A stretch of 64,000 nucleotides of DNA from Alphaproteobacteria bacterium (lineage in GTDB: Bacteria > Pseudomonadota > Alphaproteobacteria > SMXQ01), in NCBI GenBank assembly GCA_035714115.1, contig DASTMO010000078.1, positions 42,461 through 106,460 on the forward strand. Direction: 5' to 3'. A program made the position numbers and the translations under genes. This document shows, one piece after another, positions 3,270 through 51,983 of this stretch. Below the pieces are notes generated by a model. That model searched no databases. It saw only the letters and a list, made by a program, of their open reading frames with translations, and was not told the origin of the DNA. Positions within the stretch are counted from its first letter, which is position 1, and each line of letters opens with the position of its first letter.

Positions 3270-4001
3270 ATGACCTACGCCGTCGGTTTCCTACTCGACT
3301 CCGGACTTCTGTTCGCCGCCGACACGCGCACCAACGCCGGCGTCGACCATGTCTCGACCTTCCGCAAGCTGACCGTCTTCGAAAAGCCCGGCAGCCGCGT
3401 GATGACGCTGCTGTCGGCCGGCAACCTTGCCATCACCCAGGCGGTGATCGAGGAGCTCAACGTCGGCATCGCCGCCAAACGCAAAGAGAATCTGTTGAAC
3501 GTCAAGACGATGTTCGCCGCCGCGCGCCTGGTCGGCGCCGCCGTGCGCAAGGTGCATGACGTCGACGCTGCGGCGCTGCGCCAGCAGGACACCGATTTCA
3601 ACGTCTCCTTCATCTTCGGCGGCCAGATCAAGGGTGAGCGCCATCGTCTGTTCCAGATTTATTCGGCCGGCAATTTCGTCGAAGCCGCGCCCGACAGCCC
3701 CTATTTCCAGATCGGCGAGAACAAGTACGGCAAGCCGATCATCGATCGCGTCATCACCTACAAATCGAGCCTGATGGAAGCGGCGAAATGCACGCTGCTC
3801 TCGTTCGATTCGACGATGCGAAGCAACGTATCGGTCGGCCTGCCGATCAACATGCTGACTTATCGCAAGAACAGCTATAAGCGCGGCTTCGAAGTCGAGG
3901 TCGACGCGGCCAACGATTATTATCGCAGCGTCGGCGGCTACTGGAGCGATGCCTTGCGCTTCGCGTTCCAGGAAATGCCCAACCCCGACTGGAAGATCTG
4001 A
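3270..4001 (+). CDS. Proteasome-type (Ntn-hydrolase-like) protease, COG3484 family
   Basis: 243 aa, MTYAVGFLLDSGLLFAADTRTNAG. This is the fourth member of the conserved CP-ATP-grasp/alpha-E/TGase cassette. Confidence 0.65.
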   Translation: MTYAVGFLLDSGLLFAADTRTNAGVDHVSTFRKLTVFEKPGSRVMTLLSAGNLAITQAVIEELNVGIAAKRKENLLNVKTMFAAARLVGAAVRKVHDVDAAALRQQDTDFNVSFIFGGQIKGERHRLFQIYSAGNFVEAAPDSPYFQIGENKYGKPIIDRVITYKSSLMEAAKCTLLSFDSTMRSNVSVGLPINMLTYRKNSYKRGFEVEVDAANDYYRSVGGYWSDALRFAFQEMPNPDWKI

Positions 4002-22960: not shown

Positions 22961-23679
22961 TCCGCGCTTTGCTCTTCAACGTCGCCTTCTACGGCGTCAC
23001 CACGATCCTCGGGATTCTCTACCTGCCGCTGCTGCTCATTCCCGGCAAAGCGGGACAGCGCGCGATGATGGCGGCGGGGCGCGCCTGGTCGGCGCTGATC
23101 CTGTGGCTGCTCAAAGTCATCATCGGCCTCGATTTCGAGGTGCGCGGGCGCGAACATCTGCCCGCCGGTCCCTGCCTGATCGCCGCCAAGCATCAGTCGG
23201 CCTGGGACACGCTGATGCTGCCGGTGCTGCTCGGCGATCCGGTGGTTGTCCTTAAGCGGGAATTGTTCTGGATCCCCTTCTACGGCTGGTACGCCAAACG
23301 CGCCGGCATGGTCGCCATCGACCGCAAGGGCGGCGCCAAGGCGCTGCGCGCCATGCTGCGCGACGCCAAAGCGCGCACGGTGAAGGACGGCCGCGCACTC
23401 GTCATATTCCCGCAAGGCACGCGCACCGCGCCGGGAGTGTCGGCCCCCTATCAGCCGGGCGTCGCCGCGCTTTACGGCGACCTCGGACTGCCCTGCGTGC
23501 CCATGGCGCTCAATTCCGGCCTGTTCTGGGGCCGGCGCGCCTTCACCAAGCGGCCGGGCCGCATCATCGTGGAATTCCTGCCCGCCATCCCGCCGGGCCT
23601 CGCCAAACGCGACTTGCTCGCGCGTTTGGAGGCCGCCATCGAGCCGGCGACGGCGCGGCTGGAAAAATCAAGGCACTGA
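22957..23679 (+). CDS. plsC: 1-acyl-sn-glycerol-3-phosphate acyltransferase
   Basis: ATG at 22957 overlapping the upstream stop. HQSAWD (HxxxxD) and FPQGTR motifs. Confidence 0.8.
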   Translation: MIRALLFNVAFYGVTTILGILYLPLLLIPGKAGQRAMMAAGRAWSALILWLLKVIIGLDFEVRGREHLPAGPCLIAAKHQSAWDTLMLPVLLGDPVVVLKRELFWIPFYGWYAKRAGMVAIDRKGGAKALRAMLRDAKARTVKDGRALVIFPQGTRTAPGVSAPYQPGVAALYGDLGLPCVPMALNSGLFWGRRAFTKRPGRIIVEFLPAIPPGLAKRDLLARLEAAIEPATARLEKSRH

Positions 23680-23793
23680 TTTATAAAGAAAATATCTATT
23701 TATACACTTATAAATTGTAAATTATCAAATAAAACATTTTTTGAGCGTTGATTTAGCCCGGAACCGCCTCTATCTTCCGCCCGTTGCTTTCAT

Positions 23794-24918
23794 TTGGGGC
23801 GTAGAGCCGTGACCATCGACATTCAGAGCCTGTACAAGCGCTTCGGTACGCAGCCCGTTCTGCGCGGCGTCGATCTCGAGATCGGCGACGGCGAACTTGT
23901 GGCCCTGCTCGGCGCCTCCGGCTCCGGCAAGACGACCCTGCTGCGCATTCTCGCCGGCCTCGAATATCCCGATGGCGGCGACATCCTGGTCGACGGCGAA
24001 AGCTGGATCGCCAAGCCGACCCAGGCGCGCCAGGTCGGCTTCGTCTTTCAGCACTACGCCCTGTTCGGCCATCTCACCGTCGCCGAGAACATCGCCTTCG
24101 GCCTGCGCGTGCGCGAAAAGTCGCGCCGCCCGAGCGAAGCGACGATCCAGGCCAAGATCAAAGAGCTGCTTGAGCTGATCCAGCTCGACAAGCTCGGCCA
24201 CCGCTATCCCTCGCAGCTCTCCGGCGGCCAACGCCAGCGCGTCGCCCTGGCGCGCGCCCTCGCCATCGAGCCTGGTGTGCTGCTGCTCGACGAGCCGTTC
24301 GGCGCGCTCGACGCCGGTGTGCGCAAGGATCTGCGCCATTGGCTGCGCGAGCTGCACAAGCAGCTCGGCATGACAACCGTCTTCGTGACGCACGACCAGG
24401 AAGAGGCGCTCGAGCTCGCCGACCGCGTCGTCATCCTCAACGAAGGCCGCATCGAGCAGATCGGCACGCCGGAAGAGGTCTACGACCATCCGGCGACGCC
24501 CTATGTGCTGCGCTTCCTCGGCGGCGCCAACGAATTGCCGGGCCGCCTGCGCGCGGGCCGCATCGACGTCGACGGCTTGGACACCAGCGCCATCGAGCGC
24601 ATCGCCGCCGGCGACGGCGCAGCCAGCCTTTTCGTGCGCCCGCACGACATCGACGTGCTGCCCGACGAAGCCGGCCAGGCCAAGATCGGCTCGGTCTACA
24701 TCACCGGCGCGCAAGCCCATGTCGAACTGTTCCTCGGCGGCCGGCCGCTGACCGCGGAAATCCGCCGCGACATCGCCCGCGCCCGCGGCCTCAAGGCCGG
24801 CCAGCGCGTGCGCTTGAAAGCTATGCACGGCCGCCTCTTCACCGCCCCGCATGGCGCGGCGGCGAGCGCCCCGACCAAGTCGGATGCCGAAGACCTCGCC
24901 TGTATCGCGCGGCCCTGA
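23794..24918 (+). CDS. cysA: Sulfate/thiosulfate ABC transporter ATP-binding protein
   Basis: [24 protein letters not shown], and a C-terminal TOBE-like domain. Start may instead be the GTG at 23809. Confidence 0.85.
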
Positions 24919-24984: not shown

Positions 24985-26031
24985 ATGACCATGAGCAACT
25001 TCCCTCGTCGTATCGCGCTCGTCGCCACGCTGCTCGCCAGCGTTGCCGCCTCGCCCGCCGCCTTCGCGCAATCCTCTCCGGCTGACTACAAAGGCCCGAC
25101 CGAAATCCTCAACGTCTCCTATGACGTCGCCCGCGAGCTGTTCGTGAAGATCAACGACGCCTTCAATGCCGATTGGCAGAAGCAGGGCGGAAAAAAGATC
25201 GACATCAAGCAGTCGCACGCCGGCACCTCGGCCCAGGCGCGCGCCATCATGGAAGGCCTGCCGGCCGATGTCGTGACCTTCAACCAGCTTCTCGACGTGC
25301 AGGTTCTCGTCGACAAGGGCAAGCTGATCAACGCCGATTGGCAGAAGCGCCTGCCCAACGCCGCCTCGCCGTTCTATTCGATGCCCGCCTTCCTCGTGCG
25401 CAAGGGCAATCCGAAGAACGTGAAGGACTGGAACGATCTGGTCCGCGCCGACGTGAAGTCCGTCTTCCCCAATCCGAAGACCTCGGGCAACGCGCGCTAC
25501 ACCTATCTCGCCGCCTATGCCTACTCGCTGGCGAACAACGGCAAGGATCACGCCAAGGCGCAGGACTTCGTGAAGAACTTCCTGAACAACGTCGCGGTGT
25601 TCGACACCGGCGGTCGCGCCTCGACCACCACGTTTGTGGAGCGCGGCATCGGCGACGTGCTGATCACCTTCGAATCGGAAGTAAACGGCGTGAAGAAGGA
25701 ATATGGCGATAAAGGCTATGAGATCGTCATCCCGTCGCAGAGCATTCTCGCCGAGTTCCCGGTGGCTGTCGTCGACCGCAACGTCGACCGTAAGGGCACC
25801 CGCTATCTCGCCGAGAATTATCTGAAGTTCCTTTACAGCGAGACCGGCCAGGAGATCGCCGCGAGCTTCTCGCTGCGCGTCCCCGACGCCAAGGTCGCCG
25901 AGCGACACAAGGCCGAATATCCGGCCGTGAAGCTCGTCACCGTGGACGATGTGTTCGGCGGCTGGGAAAAGGCCAACAAGGAGCACTTCTCCGACGGCGG
26001 CATCCTCGACAAGGTGTTCGTGAAGCGCTAA
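24985..26031 (+). CDS. sbp: Sulfate ABC transporter periplasmic substrate-binding protein
   Basis: 348 aa with a signal peptide (AFAQ). Family resemblance to Sbp/CysP. Confidence 0.85.
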   Translation: MTMSNFPRRIALVATLLASVAASPAAFAQSSPADYKGPTEILNVSYDVARELFVKINDAFNADWQKQGGKKIDIKQSHAGTSAQARAIMEGLPADVVTFNQLLDVQVLVDKGKLINADWQKRLPNAASPFYSMPAFLVRKGNPKNVKDWNDLVRADVKSVFPNPKTSGNARYTYLAAYAYSLANNGKDHAKAQDFVKNFLNNVAVFDTGGRASTTTFVERGIGDVLITFESEVNGVKKEYGDKGYEIVIPSQSILAEFPVAVVDRNVDRKGTRYLAENYLKFLYSETGQEIAASFSLRVPDAKVAERHKAEYPAVKLVTVDDVFGGWEKANKEHFSDGGILDKVFVKR

Positions 26032-26059
26032 AGCGCTTCATCATCTGACCTGAGGCCAA

Positions 26060-26941
26060 ATGTCCCTCTCCGCGACCATCACCACCACGCAACCGCCGCG
26101 CCCGGCTGTCAAAAGCCAGGCGCGGCGTCGCGTTCTGCCCGGCTTCGGGCTGACGATGGGCGCGACCTTGTTCTATCTCGCGCTGATCGTGCTGCTGCCG
26201 GTCGCGGCCTTGATCCTCAAGACCGCCGACGGCGGCTTCGCCCGCTTCTGGCAAGTCGTCGGCAGCCCGCGCGCCATCGCCGCTTTTCAGGTGACGATCG
26301 GCGCGTCCCTGATCGCCACCGCCTTCAACGCGATCTACGGCCTGCTCGTCGCCTGGGTGCTGACGCGCTACCGCTTTCCCGGCCGCCGCTTGCTCGATGC
26401 TCTGGTCGACGTGCCCTTCGCCCTGCCGACCGCCGTCGCCGGCATCGCGCTGACCGCGCTCTTCGCCGGCAACGGCTGGTTCGGCCACATCTTGGAGCCG
26501 GCGGGACTGAAGGTCGTCTACACCATCACCGGCGTCGCCGTCGCCATGGCCTTCACCAGCGTGCCCTTCGTCGTGCGCACGGTGCAGCCCGTGCTCGAAG
26601 AACTGAAACCGGAAGCCGAAGAAGCGGCGCGCACCCTCGGCGCGACGGACTGGCAGGTCTTCACCCGCGTCATCTATCCGGCAATCTTCCCGGCGCATCT
26701 GGCCGGCAGCGCCATGTCTTTCGCGCGCTCGATGGGCGAATTCGGCGCGGTCGTCTTCATCGCCGGCAACTTGCCGTTCCAGACCGAGATCGCGCCGCTC
26801 CTCGTCTTCATCCGCCTGGAGGAATACGACTATCCGGCCGCCGCGGCGATCGCCACCGTGCTGCTCGCCGTCGCCTTCGTCCTGCTGCTCACCACCAACG
26901 CGATCCAGGCCTGGCGCCTGCGCCGCGTCGTGAAGGATTGA
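26060..26941 (+). CDS. cysT: Sulfate ABC transporter permease CysT
   Basis: 293 aa, six TM helices, EAA-loop region ARTLGATDWQVF. Confidence 0.85.
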   Translation: MSLSATITTTQPPRPAVKSQARRRVLPGFGLTMGATLFYLALIVLLPVAALILKTADGGFARFWQVVGSPRAIAAFQVTIGASLIATAFNAIYGLLVAWVLTRYRFPGRRLLDALVDVPFALPTAVAGIALTALFAGNGWFGHILEPAGLKVVYTITGVAVAMAFTSVPFVVRTVQPVLEELKPEAEEAARTLGATDWQVFTRVIYPAIFPAHLAGSAMSFARSMGEFGAVVFIAGNLPFQTEIAPLLVFIRLEEYDYPAAAAIATVLLAVAFVLLLTTNAIQAWRLRRVVKD

Positions 26942-27795
26942 GGCGCAGCATGGCCGCAACCTTGCCCGAAGATCTGTTGAAGCCGCCCGCCTCCAAAGCG
27001 CCGCGCTGGCTAATCGGCGCCGCGTTGCTGCTGACCGCGCTCTTCATCGTCGCGCCGCTGCTGGTGATCTTCGATCAAGCCTTCGCCAAAGGCATCGAGG
27101 TGTTCCGCAACAACCTCGTGCACAAGGACACGCTGCACGCCGTGTGGCTGACCGTCGTCACCGCGCTGATCGTCGTGCCGCTCAATCTGACGTTCGGCCT
27201 CGCCGCCGCCTGGGCCATCACCAAGTTCGAATTCCCCGGCAAGAAGCTGCTGCTGACCACCATCGACATCCCGTTCTCGGTCTCGCCCATCGTCGCCGGC
27301 GTCTGCTACCTGCTGCTCTACGGCTCGAACGGCCTGTTCGGCGGCTGGCTGGCGGAGATGGACGTGCGCATCATGTTCAGCATGCCGGCGATCATCCTGG
27401 TGACACTGTTCGTCACCAGCCCGTTCGTCGCGCGCGAACTGATCCCGCTGATGCAGGTGCAGGGCCGCGATCAGGAAGAAGTCGCCGCCACGCTCGGCGC
27501 CAGCGGCTGGCAGATCTTCCGCCGCGTGACCTTGCCGAACGTCAAATGGGCGCTGCTCTACGGCGCGGTGCTGTGCAACGCCCGCGCTATGGGCGAGTTC
27601 GGCGCGGTCTCGGTCGTCTCGGGCAACATCCGCGGCGAGACCAACACTCTGCCGCTGCAAGTGCAGTTGCTCTATCAGGACTACAACGCCACCGGCGCCT
27701 TCGCCGCCGCCTCGGTCCTGACCCTGCTGGCCTTTGTGACCTTGATCCTCAAGGCCATTCTCGAGCGCCATACCCAGAGCCGCAGCGGGCATTAA
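26938..27795 (+). CDS. cysW: Sulfate ABC transporter permease CysW
   Basis: 285 aa. 4-bp start/stop overlap with cysT. Confidence 0.85.
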   Translation: MRRSMAATLPEDLLKPPASKAPRWLIGAALLLTALFIVAPLLVIFDQAFAKGIEVFRNNLVHKDTLHAVWLTVVTALIVVPLNLTFGLAAAWAITKFEFPGKKLLLTTIDIPFSVSPIVAGVCYLLLYGSNGLFGGWLAEMDVRIMFSMPAIILVTLFVTSPFVARELIPLMQVQGRDQEEVAATLGASGWQIFRRVTLPNVKWALLYGAVLCNARAMGEFGAVSVVSGNIRGETNTLPLQVQLLYQDYNATGAFAAASVLTLLAFVTLILKAILERHTQSRSGH

Positions 27796-28013
27796 GTCGG
27801 CTTTTCCCCAGTGGATAAGTCTGTGGGCAATTCCTATATATTTTCCCAGGTTATTGCCGGTGGATAGCCTGAGTAAGATTCTTTAGCGGCAATAATTTTT
27901 AGTAATTACAGCAGCTTAGTGTCCATGCAGCCGCTGTGGAACACATAGAGAACGTTGTCTTCGAGACAAGCCCGCCGTAAGATCGTTTTCAGTCAGTAAG
28001 CCCGGAAATGCGA

Positions 28014-28047
28014 GCCGCCCCCGACCCTAGGTTTGGGCGGCGTTTTT
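28014..28047 (+). terminator. Rho-independent terminator/attenuator hairpin immediately upstream of the nrdJ ribosome-binding site
   Basis: gccgccc (28014-28020), a 14-nt loop, gggcggc (28035-28041), then GTTTTT. A GGAGA Shine-Dalgarno follows at 28054 and the ATG at 28067. Confidence 0.45.
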
Positions 28048-28066
28048 ATCGTCGGAGACAGCGGTC

Positions 28067-30484
28067 ATGGCGTCGGTTGCAGCGATTTCCCAGCAGATCT
28101 GGGACATGAAGTACCGCCTCAAGGACGCGCAGGGCGTCGCTGTGGATAAATCCATCGAGGGCACCTGGCGCCGCATCGCCGACGCGCTCGCCGAAGCCGA
28201 GCAGCCCGAGGGCCGCAAAGCCTGGGCCGACAAGTTCTACGGCGCGCTGGAAGACTTCGCCTTCCTGCCGGCCGGACGCATCATCGCCGGCGCCGGCACG
28301 GGCCGCTCCGTCACCCTGTTCAACTGCTTCGTGATGGGCACCGTGCCCGACGCCATGGGCGGCATCTTCGCGCACTTGCGCGAAGCGGCGCTGACCATGC
28401 AGCAGGGCGGCGGCATCGGCTACGACTTCTCAACGCTCCGCCCCAAGGGCGCGCCGGTGAAGGGCGTCGGGGCAGACGCCTCGGGCCCGCTCTCCTTCAT
28501 GGACGTGTGGGACGCCATGTGCCGCACCATCATGTCCGCCGGCAGCCGCCGCGGCGCGATGATGGCGACGATGCGCTGCGACCATCCCGACATCGAGGCC
28601 TTCATCGAGGCCAAGCGCGAGCCGGGCCGCCTGCGCATGTTCAACCTCTCGGTGCTGGTCACCGACGCCTTCATGGAAGCGGTGAAGGCCAACCTGCCGT
28701 GGGACCTGACCTTCAACGGCACGGTGTTCCGCACCGTCGAGGCGCGCGGCCTGTGGGACAAGATCATGCACGCCACCTACTCCTACGCGGAGCCGGGCGT
28801 GATCTTCATCGACCGCATCAACCGCCGCAACAACCTGCACTATTGCGAGACGATCAGCGCCACCAACCCCTGCGGCGAGCAGCCGCTGCCGCCCTACGGC
28901 GCTTGCCTGCTCGGCTCGATCAACCTCGCCCGCCTCGTCGTCGATCCCTTCGAGGAGACGGCGCGGCTCGACATGAACCGCCTGCGCAAGCTCGTGCCGC
29001 TCGCCGTGCGCATGATGGACAATGTGGTCGACGTCTCGAAATTCCCGCTCGAGGAGCAGACCCGCGAAGCCCAAGCCAAGCGCCGCATCGGCCTCGGCGT
29101 CACCGGCCTGGCCGACGCTCTCATCATGTGCCGCGCGCGCTACGGCTCGGCCGAGGCGCTGCGCCTGACCGGCGAATGGATGGGCGCGATCGAGCGCGAG
29201 GCTTATTTGGCTTCCACCGAACTGGCGCGTGAGAAGGGCGCTTTCCCGCTGTTCGACAAGGACGCCTATCTCTCGGGCGACACCATTCTCGGCCTCGACG
29301 CCGACGTGCGCGAGGCCATCAATAAGCACGGCATCCGCAACGCGCTCCTGACCTCCATCGCGCCGACCGGCACCATCTCGCTGCTCGCCGACAACGTCTC
29401 GTCGGGCCTCGAGCCGGTGTTCAGCTTTACCTACACGCGCCGCATCCTGCTGCCCGACGGCACGCGCCAGGAAGAGGAGGTGAGCGATTACGCCTACCGC
29501 CTGTTCAAGCGCCTGAAGGGCGACAACGTGCCGCTGCCCGATTATTTCGTCGACGCGCAGGTGCTCAAGCCCGCCGACCATGTGGCGATGCAGGCCGCCG
29601 TGCAGAAGCATGTCGACAGCTCGATCTCCAAGACGATCAACGTGCCCGTCGACATCGACTTCGAGGAATTCAAGGACGTCTACCTGAAGGCTTACGAGAC
29701 CGGCTGCAAGGGCTGCACGACCTACCGGCCGAACGACATCACCGGCTCGGTGCTCGAAGTGAAGCCGGCCAAGGACGCCGAGGAAGGCCAGCAGGAGCTG
29801 CCGCTCGACAAGCCCAAGGCGGCGCGCCATGCCGACCCGTACGAGGCCGGCGGCGTCGTCTACATGACCCAGCCACTCGACCGGCCGGGCGCGCTCGAAG
29901 GCCGCACCTACAAGCTGCGCTGGCCCGAGAGCGAGCATGCCATGTACATCACGATCAACGACGTGGTGCAGGACGGCCGTGTGCGCCCCTTCGAGATTTT
30001 CGTGAACTCGAAGAACATGGAGCATTTCGCTTGGACCGTCGGCCTGACGCGCATGATCTCGGCGGTGTTCCGCCGTGGCGGCGACGTCTCCTTCGTCGTC
30101 GAAGAGCTCAAAGCCGTGTTCGATCCGCGCGGCGGCCAATGGATGGACGGGCGCTATGTGCCGTCATTGCTCGCCGCCATCGGCGACGTAATTGAGAAAC
30201 ATATGATCGCCATCGGCTTCCTGCCCAACCCGCAGGAAAAGCGCGACGGCCTGTTCGACCGCCAGGTGGTGAACCTGAACGAGGCGCGCGGTCACGAAGA
30301 CCATGATCATGGCCACGAGCATCACGGCCACGAGCATCACGGCCACGATCATTCGCACAATCATTCTCAGGGCAAAGCCGCTGATGGCCGTTTCCGCCAA
30401 TGCCCGAAATGCGGCCAGGCCAGCCTGATCAAGCAGGAAGGCTGCGACAGCTGCCTGAGCTGCGCCTACTCGAAGTGCGGGTGA
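28067..30484 (+). CDS. nrdJ: Class II (adenosylcobalamin-dependent) ribonucleotide reductase
   Basis: 805 aa. RNR active-site region NPCGEQPLPPYGACLLGSINL, a C-terminal CPKCG...CDSCLSC zinc ribbon, and a His-rich HEDHDHGHEHHGHEHHGHDHSHNH insertion before it. Confidence 0.9.
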   Translation: MASVAAISQQIWDMKYRLKDAQGVAVDKSIEGTWRRIADALAEAEQPEGRKAWADKFYGALEDFAFLPAGRIIAGAGTGRSVTLFNCFVMGTVPDAMGGIFAHLREAALTMQQGGGIGYDFSTLRPKGAPVKGVGADASGPLSFMDVWDAMCRTIMSAGSRRGAMMATMRCDHPDIEAFIEAKREPGRLRMFNLSVLVTDAFMEAVKANLPWDLTFNGTVFRTVEARGLWDKIMHATYSYAEPGVIFIDRINRRNNLHYCETISATNPCGEQPLPPYGACLLGSINLARLVVDPFEETARLDMNRLRKLVPLAVRMMDNVVDVSKFPLEEQTREAQAKRRIGLGVTGLADALIMCRARYGSAEALRLTGEWMGAIEREAYLASTELAREKGAFPLFDKDAYLSGDTILGLDADVREAINKHGIRNALLTSIAPTGTISLLADNVSSGLEPVFSFTYTRRILLPDGTRQEEEVSDYAYRLFKRLKGDNVPLPDYFVDAQVLKPADHVAMQAAVQKHVDSSISKTINVPVDIDFEEFKDVYLKAYETGCKGCTTYRPNDITGSVLEVKPAKDAEEGQQELPLDKPKAARHADPYEAGGVVYMTQPLDRPGALEGRTYKLRWPESEHAMYITINDVVQDGRVRPFEIFVNSKNMEHFAWTVGLTRMISAVFRRGGDVSFVVEELKAVFDPRGGQWMDGRYVPSLLAAIGDVIEKHMIAIGFLPNPQEKRDGLFDRQVVNLNEARGHEDHDHGHEHHGHEHHGHDHSHNHSQGKAADGRFRQCPKCGQASLIKQEGCDSCLSCAYSKCG

Positions 30485-49724: not shown

Positions 49725-49802
49725 GAACGAAAGGACTCCCCCTAGCGGCGCCGGACGGCGCGCGCAAATCGGAGAACCAGCATAGTCGTGCCGGTTTAAC
49801 CG

Positions 49803-49819
49803 TATCTTAAAATAAGATA
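49803..49819. promoter_or_regulatory. Perfect AT-rich palindrome TATCTTAAAATAAGATA in the kinase/aminotransferase intergenic region
   Basis: 17-bp perfect inverted repeat inside a short AT-rich island. It sits upstream of the MHYT kinase start and downstream of the aminotransferase stop. Confidence 0.3.
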
Positions 49820-49859
49820 AGGAAGATTTTCTTGCTTGCTCAGTGACTTAGTCTGAGCG

Positions 49860-51287
49860 TTAAGGAACCGCCCGCAAAGCTTCGCTCAAAATGCCGAAGA
49901 GTTCGGCGATTTGCGCCGCACTCACGATGAGCGGCGGCGACAATGCGATGATGTCGCCGGTGACGCGGATCAGTAGGCCGCGCTTCTGGCATTCGAGGAA
50001 CACCTCGTAGGCGCGCGCGCCAGGCGCGCCCGGGCGCGGCGCGAGCTCGATGCCGGCGACCAAGCCGATATTGCGAATGTCGATGACGTTGGGCAGGCCT
50101 TTGAGCGCATGCGCCGCCTCTTCCCACGGCGCCGAAAGATCGGCGGCGCGCTGGAAAAGATTGTCGCGCTCATAGATGTCGAGCGTCGCGAGCGCCGCGG
50201 CGCAGGCCAGCGGATGGGCCGAATAGGTGTAGCCGTGGAACAGCTCGATGACGTTCTCCGGCCCGTTCATGAAGGCGTCATAGATGCCCTTGCGCACCAT
50301 CACGCCGCCCATCGGCACGGCGCCGTTGGTGATGCCCTTGGCCATCGTCATCAGATCGGGAACGACGCCGAAATAATCGGCAGCGAAGGGCGCTCCGAGA
50401 CGGCCGAAGCCGGTGATGACCTCGTCGAAGATCAAGAGGATGCCGTGCTTGTCGCAAATCGCGCGCAGCTTCTCGAGATAGCCCTGCGGCGGCACCAGTA
50501 CGCCGGTCGAGCCGGCCATCGGCTCGACGATGACGGCGGCGATCGTCGAAGCGTCGTGCAGCGTCACCAGCGCTTCGAGATTGTCGGCGAGATGCGCGCC
50601 CCATGCCGGCTGGCCGCGCGAGAAGGCATTGTGCTCGAGGTTATGCGTGTGCGGCAGATGGTCGACGCCGTTGAGCATGTTGCCGAACTGCTTGCGGTTG
50701 CCGACGATGCCGCCGACCGAGATGCCGCCGAAGTTCACGCCGTGATAGCCGCGCTCGCGGCCGATCAGGCGCGTGCGCGAGCCTTCGCCGCGCAGCTTAT
50801 GGTAGGCGAGCGCGATCTTCAGCGCCGTCTCGACCGATTCGGAGCCCGAATTGGTGAAGAACACATGATCCAAATCGCCCGGCGCCATGCCGGCGAGACG
50901 GCTCGCCAGCTCGAAGGCCTTCGGATGGCTCATCTGGAAGGCGGTGGCGTAATCCATCTCGCGCGCCTGCTCGGCGATGGCGTCGGCGATCTCGTCGCGG
51001 CAATGGCCGGCGTTGACGCACCACAGGCCGGCGCTGCCGTCGAGCAGCTTGCGTCCGTCGGTCAGCTCGTAATGCATGTCCTTGGCTTTGGCGATCAGGC
51101 GCGGCGCCGCCTTGAACTGGCGGTTCGGCGTGAATGGCACCCAATAGGCCTCGAGATCGTTGCGCGCCGTGGCGCTCTGGTTCGCCGAGCGGGCCGTGTT
51201 CGCGGCAATCGTTTTTTTACGGGACGCCGTCCCATTTTCGGCGCCGCTTTTGCGGGTCGCGGGCTTATCGGTCGTGCCGCCGGTCAT
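49860..51287 (-). CDS. Class III (omega) aminotransferase, beta-alanine/omega-amino acid--pyruvate type
   Basis: 475 aa. Close match throughout to the omega-amino-acid:pyruvate aminotransferase family (LWCVNAGH, DEVITGFGRLG, TMAKGITNGAVPMG). Confidence 0.85.
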   Translation of the reverse strand: MTGGTTDKPATRKSGAENGTASRKKTIAANTARSANQSATARNDLEAYWVPFTPNRQFKAAPRLIAKAKDMHYELTDGRKLLDGSAGLWCVNAGHCRDEIADAIAEQAREMDYATAFQMSHPKAFELASRLAGMAPGDLDHVFFTNSGSESVETALKIALAYHKLRGEGSRTRLIGRERGYHGVNFGGISVGGIVGNRKQFGNMLNGVDHLPHTHNLEHNAFSRGQPAWGAHLADNLEALVTLHDASTIAAVIVEPMAGSTGVLVPPQGYLEKLRAICDKHGILLIFDEVITGFGRLGAPFAADYFGVVPDLMTMAKGITNGAVPMGGVMVRKGIYDAFMNGPENVIELFHGYTYSAHPLACAAALATLDIYERDNLFQRAADLSAPWEEAAHALKGLPNVIDIRNIGLVAGIELAPRPGAPGARAYEVFLECQKRGLLIRVTGDIIALSPPLIVSAAQIAELFGILSEALRAVP

Positions 51288-51556
51288 GGCTCGGCTCCCT
51301 TTTGAACTCGAAGACGCTTGTTATCGTTCAAGATTACACCCCGCCTGGACGATCCGGCACCCGGCGAGTGCGAAACGGTCGCTGCGGAGCGCAAAACGGG
51401 CGACGGCCTTATGGAGCCCAGAGCCTTGGCGGATCACGCGAATCGGCCGCTATTTGGTTAATTTAACCGTGACTCTACGCCTTTTAACATATTGTAAACA
51501 CTACATTTTTCCCATTGCCTCGCAAAATGGACAGCGCTACAAATCAACAAAAGCCG

Positions 51557-51570
51557 CTAAAATTTTAGCT
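51557..51570. promoter_or_regulatory. Perfect 14-bp palindrome GCTAAAATTTTAGC in an AT-rich promoter region
   Basis: Located about 30 bp upstream of the 51600 ORF inside an AT-rich island (51440-51600). Candidate operator. Confidence 0.3.
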
Positions 51571-51599
51571 AAAGCTGACGGATACATCGGACCCGCAAC

Positions 51600-51983
51600 G
51601 TGCAGATCGGCGCCAGCGCCATAACCCCTTACGGGATGCAGTCCAGCGCGACGACAGCGATGTCGGCGCAGGCGGGCGCGCGTGCCTATGCGGAAATGAC
51701 GCCGGTCGCGCCGGTCAGCGAGATTCTGCGCGGCCAGCGCGGCGAAGCTTGGATCGACGCGTCTTGGACCGAAGCGCCCGAGCGCCCAGCCCAGATCGAT
51801 CCTTACGAGACCGGCGAAACCGACGGCGCCGTGGCCTTCGCCGCCCAGACCCTGGGCCAGACGGCCGAGCCGCACTATGCCGCCCCGGCGGCCCATCAGG
51901 TCGGCTGCGCCGCCTATCGCGCGGCGCAAGGCGGCCAAGGCGAATTCCGCCGCGGCGACATGGGCATCGACCTGGTCGCCTAA
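51600..51983 (+). CDS. Hypothetical small acidic Ala/Gln-rich protein (start uncertain: GTG 51600 or ATG near 51636)
   Basis: High GC3 codon usage consistent with real coding. No recognisable domain. Sits just upstream of the glycosyltransferase operon. Confidence 0.35.
   Translation: MQIGASAITPYGMQSSATTAMSAQAGARAYAEMTPVAPVSEILRGQRGEAWIDASWTEAPERPAQIDPYETGETDGAVAFAAQTLGQTAEPHYAAPAAHQVGCAAYRAAQGGQGEFRRGDMGIDLVA

Follow-up and report, generated by a model that had tools for sequence, protein, structure and literature searches.

The nrdJ locus of this uncultured alphaproteobacterium raises the question of how a class II (adenosylcobalamin-dependent) ribonucleotide reductase (RNR) gene is controlled from the spacer in front of it. 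A first-pass annotation of the sequence had described this spacer as a structured leader, with a terminator-like hairpin placed shortly before the Shine-Dalgarno sequence, and had considered a B12-responsive or NrdR-type switch to be plausible. The spacer (27796-28066, 271 nt) lies between cysW (26938-27795; TIGR02140 at 397 bits, above the NCBIfam cut-off) and nrdJ, whose orthologues align from residue 1, within a stretch of DNA of 64,000 nucleotides that was analysed as a whole and is called the window here. As had been stated, the spacer is unusually AT-rich, with a GC content of 0.42-0.47 compared with about 0.66 for the window, and it is one of only four stretches in the 64 kb that fall below 50% GC per 150 nt. 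Every sequence feature listed by the first-pass annotation was found again in its place; the positions of the features discussed below are collected in Table 1.

Conservation of the Spacer among nrdJ Loci

A total of 167 nrdJ loci from other alphaproteobacteria were compared, from sets of 80 loci from reference genomes, 80 from metagenomes, and nine from close relatives (80-98% NrdJ identity). The enrichment of sequence patterns was determined over 159 loci, with 47 kb of sequence upstream of nrdJ set against 922 kb of other sequence, and the close relatives were compared in an alignment of nine sequences (A1). The closest relatives of the nrdJ in the window are metagenome-assembled genomes (MAGs) of uncultured Alphaproteobacteria. 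According to alignment A1, the spacer is strongly conserved at 87-98% identity, in the form of discrete conserved blocks with drifting sequence between them. The spacer element is kept with nrdJ even in loci with a gene other than cysW upstream (L082, L085, and L086), that is, the leader travels with nrdJ, and its hairpin is kept in close and in a few distant relatives. Since leader and hairpin are both conserved, the lack of conservation that had been named as evidence against a leader function is not what was found.

Table 1. Features in and around the cysW-nrdJ spacer, numbered from the first letter of the window
Feature	Position	Strand	Basis and remarks
Predicted DnaA box 1, AGTGGATAA	27810-27818	+	Sequence match, alignment A1; 1 mismatch to TGTGGATAA; first half of double box
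Predicted DnaA box 2, TGTGGGCAA	27822-27830	+	Sequence match, alignment A1; 2 mismatches; second half of double box, 3-nt spacer
DnaA-box-like site 3, GGTGGATAG	27859-27867	+	Second direct repeat; 2-3 mismatches to consensus
9-bp inverted repeat, TTATTGCCG...CGGCAATAA	27851-27859 / 27887-27895	.	100% complementary
Predicted alphaproteobacterial LexA-type operator, GAACACATAGAGAAC (reverse complement GTTCTCTATGTGTTC)	27939-27953	+	Matrix score, motif match
Putative -35 hexamer, TTGTCT	27955-27960	+	Aligns with TTGAC(C/G) of relatives
Putative -10 hexamer, TAAGAT	27978-27983	+	17 nt after -35; TAAGAT, TACAAT or TACACT in close relatives
GC-rich hairpin and TTTTT, intrinsic-terminator-like	28014-28047	+	-17.5 kcal/mol; starts ~25 nt into predicted 5'UTR
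Shine-Dalgarno, GGAGA	28054-28058	+	6 nt past T-run, 8 nt ahead of ATG
nrdJ, class II (adenosylcobalamin-dependent) ribonucleotide reductase, 805 aa	28067-30484	+	TIGR02504, 587.8 bits (cut-off 400)
Perfect DnaA-box sequence TGTGGATAA inside nrdJ, codons V-D-K (candidate only)	28141-28149	+	Exact match

Predicted DnaA Boxes

The two direct repeats that had been assigned to the structured leader, aGTGGATAAGtCTG at 27810-27823 and gGTGGATAGcCTG at 27859-27871, are present, but their role as RNA elements is not retained, and they are read here as putative DnaA boxes, i.e., DNA operator sites. A repeat search returned the pair as CCAGTGGATA and CCGGTGGATA, which are 90% identical and 49 nt apart. 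A 10-mer in two copies is not significant alone, and its significance is supplied by the orthologues. A DnaA box was defined as a 9-mer matching TTATCCACA (TGTGGATAA) with at most 1-2 mismatches, and a double box as two boxes in direct orientation, 2-3 nt apart. The two boxes at 27810-27830 are in direct orientation and have the 9+3+9 layout of a double box.

At the aligned position of box 1, six of the nine sequences in A1 carry a perfect TGTGGATAA, and in box 2 the 5' part TGTG is invariant and the remainder is mostly well conserved. Upstream of nrdJ (47 kb, 159 loci), exact TGTGGATAA occurs 42 times on the gene (+) strand and 5 times on the - strand, compared with 23 occurrences on both strands of the other 922 kb. 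The exact 9-mer thus keeps one orientation upstream of nrdJ, where it is ~70-fold enriched. The tandem pattern TGTGGATAANNNTGTGG (at most one mismatch) was found upstream of nrdJ in 35/159 loci and only 4 times in the 922 kb elsewhere. Together with site 3, which is conserved as CGGTGGA(T/A)AGCC in close relatives, the double box makes up a predicted DnaA-box cluster (27810-27830 and 27859-27867). The assignment of site 3 to DnaA is the weaker one, because of its mismatches to the consensus. It also counts against the cluster that the window's own boxes have 1-2 mismatches and lie ~130-180 bp upstream of the putative transcription start, which is unusually far.

A further DnaA-box sequence is located inside nrdJ, and it is exact in the five close relatives that use the GAT codon. 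Its function is doubtful, because a conserved protein motif partly explains the occurrence of TGTGGATAA at this position.

LexA-Type Operator and Putative Promoter

For scoring the spacer, a matrix was derived from 32 LexA boxes of Caulobacter that have ChIP peaks (S6 Table, PMC12700426) and themselves range from 14.5 to 25.7 bits. The site GAACACATAGAGAAC reaches 19.4 bits, in the middle of the training range, and is the top site on both strands of the 64-kb window. According to previous studies, GTTC-N7-GTTC is the LexA motif of alphaproteobacteria (PMC3323433, PMC4951493), and GAACACATAGAGAAC fits this direct repeat. A site of at least 14 bits is present upstream of nrdJ in 132 of the 159 loci, compared with 22 such sites in 922 kb elsewhere, and 128/133 of the upstream LexA-type sites share one orientation. 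Exact copies of the extended core AACAT-N5-GAACA are present in 44 loci and missing from the 922 kb of other sequence. In close relatives, the best-conserved block of the spacer reads cTGTG(G/A)AACAtAtnGnGAACaT, followed by TTGTCTTCG, and the consensus of the wider set is tgTGG-AAACATAACnnGAACAT, 2-6 nt, TTGAC, 17 nt, and cTAnAnT. On these matches, 27939-27953 is a predicted alphaproteobacterial LexA operator.

Some observations count against this prediction. The left half-site in relatives is mostly AAAC, not GAAC. No lexA, recA, or other SOS gene was found within the window or the fetched loci. The box is located upstream of the -35 hexamer and not over the -10 hexamer or the start; therefore, activation or binding of another protein may apply. 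The second-best matrix site in the window, at 3650, was rejected as it is inside a coding region and probably arose by chance.

A sigma-70 promoter is predicted directly downstream, with the end of the LexA-type operator one base ahead of the -35 hexamer. A TTGAC-like -35 hexamer follows the LexA box by 1-9 nt in 90/128 loci, and 79 of these 90 loci also have a TAnnnT hexamer 16-18 nt past the -35. In the window, TTGTCT and TAAGAT match the consensus at 8/12 positions, and a strict consensus promoter scan did not call them, so that the promoter call rests on the alignment. Judging from these hexamers, transcription would start near 27990, giving a 5'UTR of ~76 nt. A second promoter, TTATTG-N17-TAAGAT (27851-27879), with DnaA box 3 between its two hexamers, is kept as a weak possibility only; it was demoted because its -10 hexamer is not conserved (TAAGAA or TAACAA in relatives). 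The LexA-type operator is the strongest conserved block of the spacer, and it had been overlooked in the first-pass annotation.

Terminator-Like Hairpin before the Shine-Dalgarno Sequence

The GC-rich hairpin and T-run shortly before GGAGA had been described correctly. The hairpin consists of the arms GCCGCCC (28014-28020) and GGGCGGC (28035-28041) with an inner stem GACC/GGTT, giving a 7+4-bp stem, which is followed by a single G and TTTTT at 28043-28047. It has the layout of an intrinsic terminator, i.e., a GC-rich stem-loop with a U-run, and a simple terminator scan picks out its inner part. The hairpin is conserved only in a sub-clade (14/167 loci). It is located at -25 from the ATG in the window, in L081-L088, and in L005, whose NrdJ is 73% identical; related hairpins occur in L017/L099 and L006/L067, and L089 (80% identity) is without the hairpin. 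The Shine-Dalgarno sequence behind it is GGAG in all relatives of 87-98% NrdJ identity except L087/L088 (GAAGG).

Among these relatives of 87-98% NrdJ identity, a 19-nt block GGCGGCGTTTTTATCGTCG, comprising the 3' arm, the T-run, and the next 9 nt, is invariant, whereas the loop, the inner stem, and the 5' flank vary, with each homologue still folding into a hairpin. In the close clade, the 3' half is invariant together with the 12 nt behind it, and this tract may serve as a binding site. The outer arms are 11 to 16 nt apart, a variation that fits an RNA hairpin rather than the operator of a dimeric protein. The covariation signal is weak: a single compensatory pair (C-G to G-C) was seen, and the shuffle controls were unimpressive. 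In RNAalifold, the hairpin was the only structure found in the leader, and the covariation term of +0.15 gave no covariation support.

A covariance model of the hairpin found no further members in ~150 other loci or elsewhere in the window, and upstream of nrdJ there is no enrichment of terminator-like hairpins as a class (19/164 loci vs 7-17 in shuffles). The hairpin was thus rejected both as a general feature of nrdJ leaders and as a repeated genomic element, of which the window holds no other copy. A leader peptide starting from the ATG at 28009 was rejected as well, as this ATG is absent from L084-L087. The hairpin resembles an efficient terminator in front of a possibly essential gene, an arrangement that is poorly accounted for by a purely constitutive role.

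Alternative Explanations of the Leader

The leader had been suggested to be a cobalamin (AdoCbl) riboswitch, or another known riboswitch, with the hairpin and T-run as its expression platform. The requirement of NrdJ for AdoCbl and the terminator-like hairpin 6 nt before the Shine-Dalgarno sequence would suit such a switch, but next to no plausibility is left to it. No Rfam family was found at gathering thresholds in the whole 64-kb window, and a search of 27700-28200 at E<=10 returned no cobalamin family and only two meaningless matches (E=5-9). A multi-helix aptamer upstream of the hairpin was not found either: in the window, 23 nt lie between the putative start and the hairpin, and this segment varies up to ~85 nt in relatives, with no conserved fold. 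The claim of a structured leader is likewise not borne out, as the fold z-score against shuffles is 0.03 for the predicted 5'UTR, and for the whole spacer it is only slightly better (-1.33). The weak B12-box candidate gccgctgtgg (27930-27939) turned out to be the flank of the LexA-type box, overlapping it at the last base 27939 only. Known B12 riboswitches repress B12-independent RNRs and are not known to repress nrdJ. The perfect 9-bp inverted repeat is present as had been reported, yet it does not stand as a functional stem: it is found only in the window and in L081 (98% relative) and is lost from L082 outward, and because of this confinement it is probably not functional. Control by NrdR, with CTATATAT at 27834-27841 as half of an NrdR box, is barely credible. 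NrdR regulons commonly include nrdJ (PMC2808921), and a few distant relatives (L036, L043, and L076) have paired boxes with a distance of 31-32 bp in front of nrdJ, but no such pair is seen in the window or its close relatives. NrdR control was defined by a 16-bp palindrome near acaCwAtATaTwGtgt, in two boxes ~31-32 bp apart that overlap the promoter, and the 400 nt that precede nrdJ in the window hold no site with five or fewer mismatches from the consensus ACACWATATATWGTGT. As for the CTATATAT block, it forms no palindrome, lacks a second box at a distance of 31-32 bp, and shows loose conservation only, drifting to CCCATATCTGTC at 88% NrdJ identity. That the hairpin is the terminator of the upstream cysPTW operon is very unlikely. 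No terminator was found directly after cysW, with which the hairpin shares its orientation; however, 220 nt separate the hairpin from the cysW stop, the conserved promoter and operators of nrdJ come before it, and its distance to nrdJ stays the same in loci with a different upstream gene (L082, L085, and L086).

Regulation through the hairpin itself is a different matter. The hairpin and U-run may form a regulated attenuator, at which a factor (a protein, sRNA/Hfq, or NTP-sensitive pausing as in pyrG- and pyrBI-type leaders) decides between termination at ~55 nt and read-through. The invariance of GGCGGCGTTTTTATCGTCG beside a variable loop and 5' flank, the same -25 position in L005 at 73% NrdJ identity, and the variable arm spacing, which suits an RNA hairpin but not a protein operator, speak for regulation of this kind. 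However, no conserved antiterminator pairing or leader ORF was found, and the weak covariation and the lack of enrichment over shuffles described above also weigh against it; moreover, the hairpin is absent from ~150/167 nrdJ loci and is therefore not required for nrdJ control in general. On balance, a regulated attenuator appears rather unlikely, although it would be compatible with DnaA and LexA acting on the upstream DNA. A bolder proposal, which we regard as doubtful, is that the hairpin, the U-run, and the invariant tract up to the Shine-Dalgarno sequence represent an undescribed, aptamer-less attenuator platform of class II ribonucleotide reductase, sensed by a protein, sRNA/Hfq, or nucleotide-dependent pausing on top of DnaA and LexA control. 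As for the upstream DNA, the GAAC-N7-GAAC direct repeat beside the -35 hexamer may be the binding site of a regulator different from LexA, such as an activator of the response-regulator type that recognises 11-bp-spaced direct repeats. A box upstream of and adjoining the -35 is in the classic position of an activator, and the prevalence of AAAC in the left half-site and the frequent TGTGG flank point in the same direction. Binding by such a regulator is nevertheless distinctly unlikely, given that the top-scoring LexA box of Caulobacter, GTTCTTGTTATGTTC, when read as its reverse complement, almost matches the nrdJ consensus AAACATAACnnGAACAT, that the matrix scores fall within the ChIP-backed range, and that the LexA motif is reported to be very well conserved across the alphaproteobacteria (PMC4951493).

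Proposed Control of nrdJ

The spacer upstream of nrdJ is neither a B12 riboswitch nor an NrdR switch. On sequence and comparative grounds, it is probably a DNA-level transcriptional control region of nrdJ, which combines predicted DnaA and LexA sites with a sigma-70 promoter and a clade-specific hairpin. In the proposed mechanism, DnaA would bind the cooperative double box (27810-27830) and the weaker site (27859-27867), ~130-180 bp upstream of the putative start, and nrdJ would be transcribed according to the state of the replication initiator, like E. coli nrdAB; any sign assigned to this control would be conjectural. LexA bound to 27939-27953, abutting the -35, would block RNA polymerase at TTGTCT-17 nt-TAAGAT. 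Upon DNA damage or replication stress, RecA-stimulated cleavage of LexA would release nrdJ and raise the dNTP supply.

Transcription would then proceed from ~27990 through the ~76-nt 5'UTR and meet the hairpin and U-run ~25 nt into it, 6 nt before the Shine-Dalgarno sequence. The hairpin may act there as a leaky promoter-proximal attenuator that caps read-through, most likely constitutively or via some factor. As it is preceded by neither a conserved aptamer nor a conserved antiterminator, it is not regarded as a switch that senses a ligand.

Comparison with Known Systems

RNR genes are known to be controlled by DnaA in E. coli, and such control has been proposed in Caulobacter and B. subtilis (PMC8203912). 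By ChIP-seq, the double DnaA box is the preferred DnaA-binding unit in E. coli, including gTTATCCACAaagTTATGCACTt at nrdA (PMC11317965), and we located this double box in the sequence at -162 to -142 from the nrdA ATG. The arrangement predicted here resembles E. coli nrdAB in having two direct 9-mers with a 3-nt spacer (9+3+9) upstream of an RNR gene, with a further weaker box nearby and an AT-rich region. It differs in that nrdAB encodes a class Ia RNR under DnaA-ATP/ADP control, whereas the present gene is a class II nrdJ of an uncultured alphaproteobacterium. The E. coli nrdA boxes also read TTATCCACA on the gene strand and abut the -35, unlike the predicted boxes here, which read TGTGGATAA, i.e., in the opposite orientation, and are located far upstream of the putative start.

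In the LexA regulons of Caulobacter, Rhodobacter, and Sinorhizobium, the operator is the same GTTC-N7-GTTC direct repeat with an 11-bp periodicity, and the site upstream of nrdJ scores in the middle of the range. Unlike in the Caulobacter regulon, the predicted target is nrdJ, and the site directly precedes the -35. Among the promoters of the Caulobacter LexA table, we recognised no RNR gene. In the literature searched, no paper linking LexA to nrdJ in alphaproteobacteria was found, nor any description of DnaA and LexA combined at a class II nrdJ. The E. coli uvrB promoter is reported to be under joint control of DnaA and LexA (PMC6015884). The likeness would be that a single promoter region holds both DnaA boxes and a LexA operator and links replication status to DNA damage, with differences in the gene, the organism, the class of LexA motif, and the geometry.

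The cobalamin riboswitch (RF00174) and NrdR boxes are known regulators of RNR genes, and both are absent here. Attenuators that consist of a promoter-proximal intrinsic terminator without an aptamer are found at B. subtilis pyrG and E. coli pyrBI. The nrdJ leader may be likened to them by its short length and by the GC hairpin and U-run just before the RBS of a nucleotide-metabolism gene, which is a resemblance only. It differs from them in having no conserved homopolymer at the start site, no leader peptide, and no antiterminator.

Implications for nrdJ Regulation in Alphaproteobacteria

The hypothesis of a riboswitch is replaced by a concrete promoter map of nrdJ. Both the control of RNR genes by DnaA and the SOS box of alphaproteobacteria are already known. 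The result is an addition to regulon maps and not a new principle; for such maps, the predicted nrdJ sites are useful, and their interest is modest. E. coli nrdAB is damage-inducible without LexA. The map predicts that, in many Rhodospirillales-like alphaproteobacteria, the B12-dependent RNR gene is a direct LexA (SOS) target that also carries DnaA boxes. If this prediction is true, dNTP synthesis in these bacteria would be wired to both DNA damage and the initiation of replication.

Genomic neighbourhood of nrdJ and other low-GC stretches

The cysP, cysT and cysW genes lie contiguously upstream of nrdJ, which encodes the class II ribonucleotide reductase, but are not followed by cysA, the ATPase gene. 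The operator-rich nrdJ spacer starts immediately past the cysW stop codon, and there is no terminator near this stop. In two close relatives, more than 1.1 kb upstream of nrdJ carries no called gene (L085:376-1500 and L086:357-1500, nrdJ loci of other alphaproteobacteria); this stretch occupies the place of cysW and may represent a decayed or uncalled gene.

Apart from the nrdJ spacer, only three stretches of the window fall below 50% GC per 150 nt. The last of them contains AACATATTGTAAACA, a weak LexA-like direct repeat of 11.5 bits (matrix from 32 Caulobacter LexA boxes, training range 14.5-25.7), located between genes for an aminotransferase and a glycosyltransferase. An Rfam search over the window (1-64000) returned no family of any kind at gathering score, tRNAs included.

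Features located in the window and in compared nrdJ loci
Feature	Position	Strand	Remark
Low-GC stretch	window 23582-23864		minimum GC 0.35
cysP, cysT, cysW	window 24985-27795		contiguous
DnaA-box-like 9-mer TGTGGAAAC	window 27935-27943 and homologous positions in loci		overlaps left LexA half-site
DnaA box TGTGGATAA, perfect match	window 28141-28149		within nrdJ, codons A-V-D-K
Low-GC stretch	window 49751-49954		minimum GC 0.46
Low-GC stretch	window 51390-51645		minimum GC 0.40
LexA-type box GAACGTATAGAGAACA	L076:~5484	minus	shortly past the 3' end of nrdJ, opposite to it in strand
LexA-type box GAACTTATAGAGAACA	L077:~5489	minus	shortly past the 3' end of nrdJ, opposite to it in strand

Predicted operators in and around nrdJ

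The predicted double DnaA box and LexA box are both kept in L089, a relative with 80% NrdJ identity. The terminator-like hairpin is absent here (L089:1440-1500), and in its stead stands a perfect-match DnaA box, TTATCCACA, in reverse orientation and about 30 nt upstream of the ATG of nrdJ. The DnaA box inside nrdJ, which uses GAT, the rarer codon, recurs unchanged in five close relatives, whereas three others have TGTGGACAA in its place; an exact box within the first 150 nt of nrdJ was found in 15 of 166 loci.

NrdR-like palindrome pairs, 31-32 bp apart, are located at about -110 to -45 upstream of nrdJ in L036, L043 and L076 (Nisaea, Sneathiella and Sulfitobacter), and therefore NrdR control of nrdJ, as predicted from these sites, seems to be lineage-specific among the loci compared. 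The two loci with a LexA-type box 3' of nrdJ are both Sulfitobacter.

Directly 5' of the LexA box, TGTGG is frequent, being present in 22 of 128 loci, with the variants GGTGG and TGTTG, so that a DnaA-box-like 9-mer is formed across the left LexA half-site. This predicted overlap hints at competition between DnaA and LexA.
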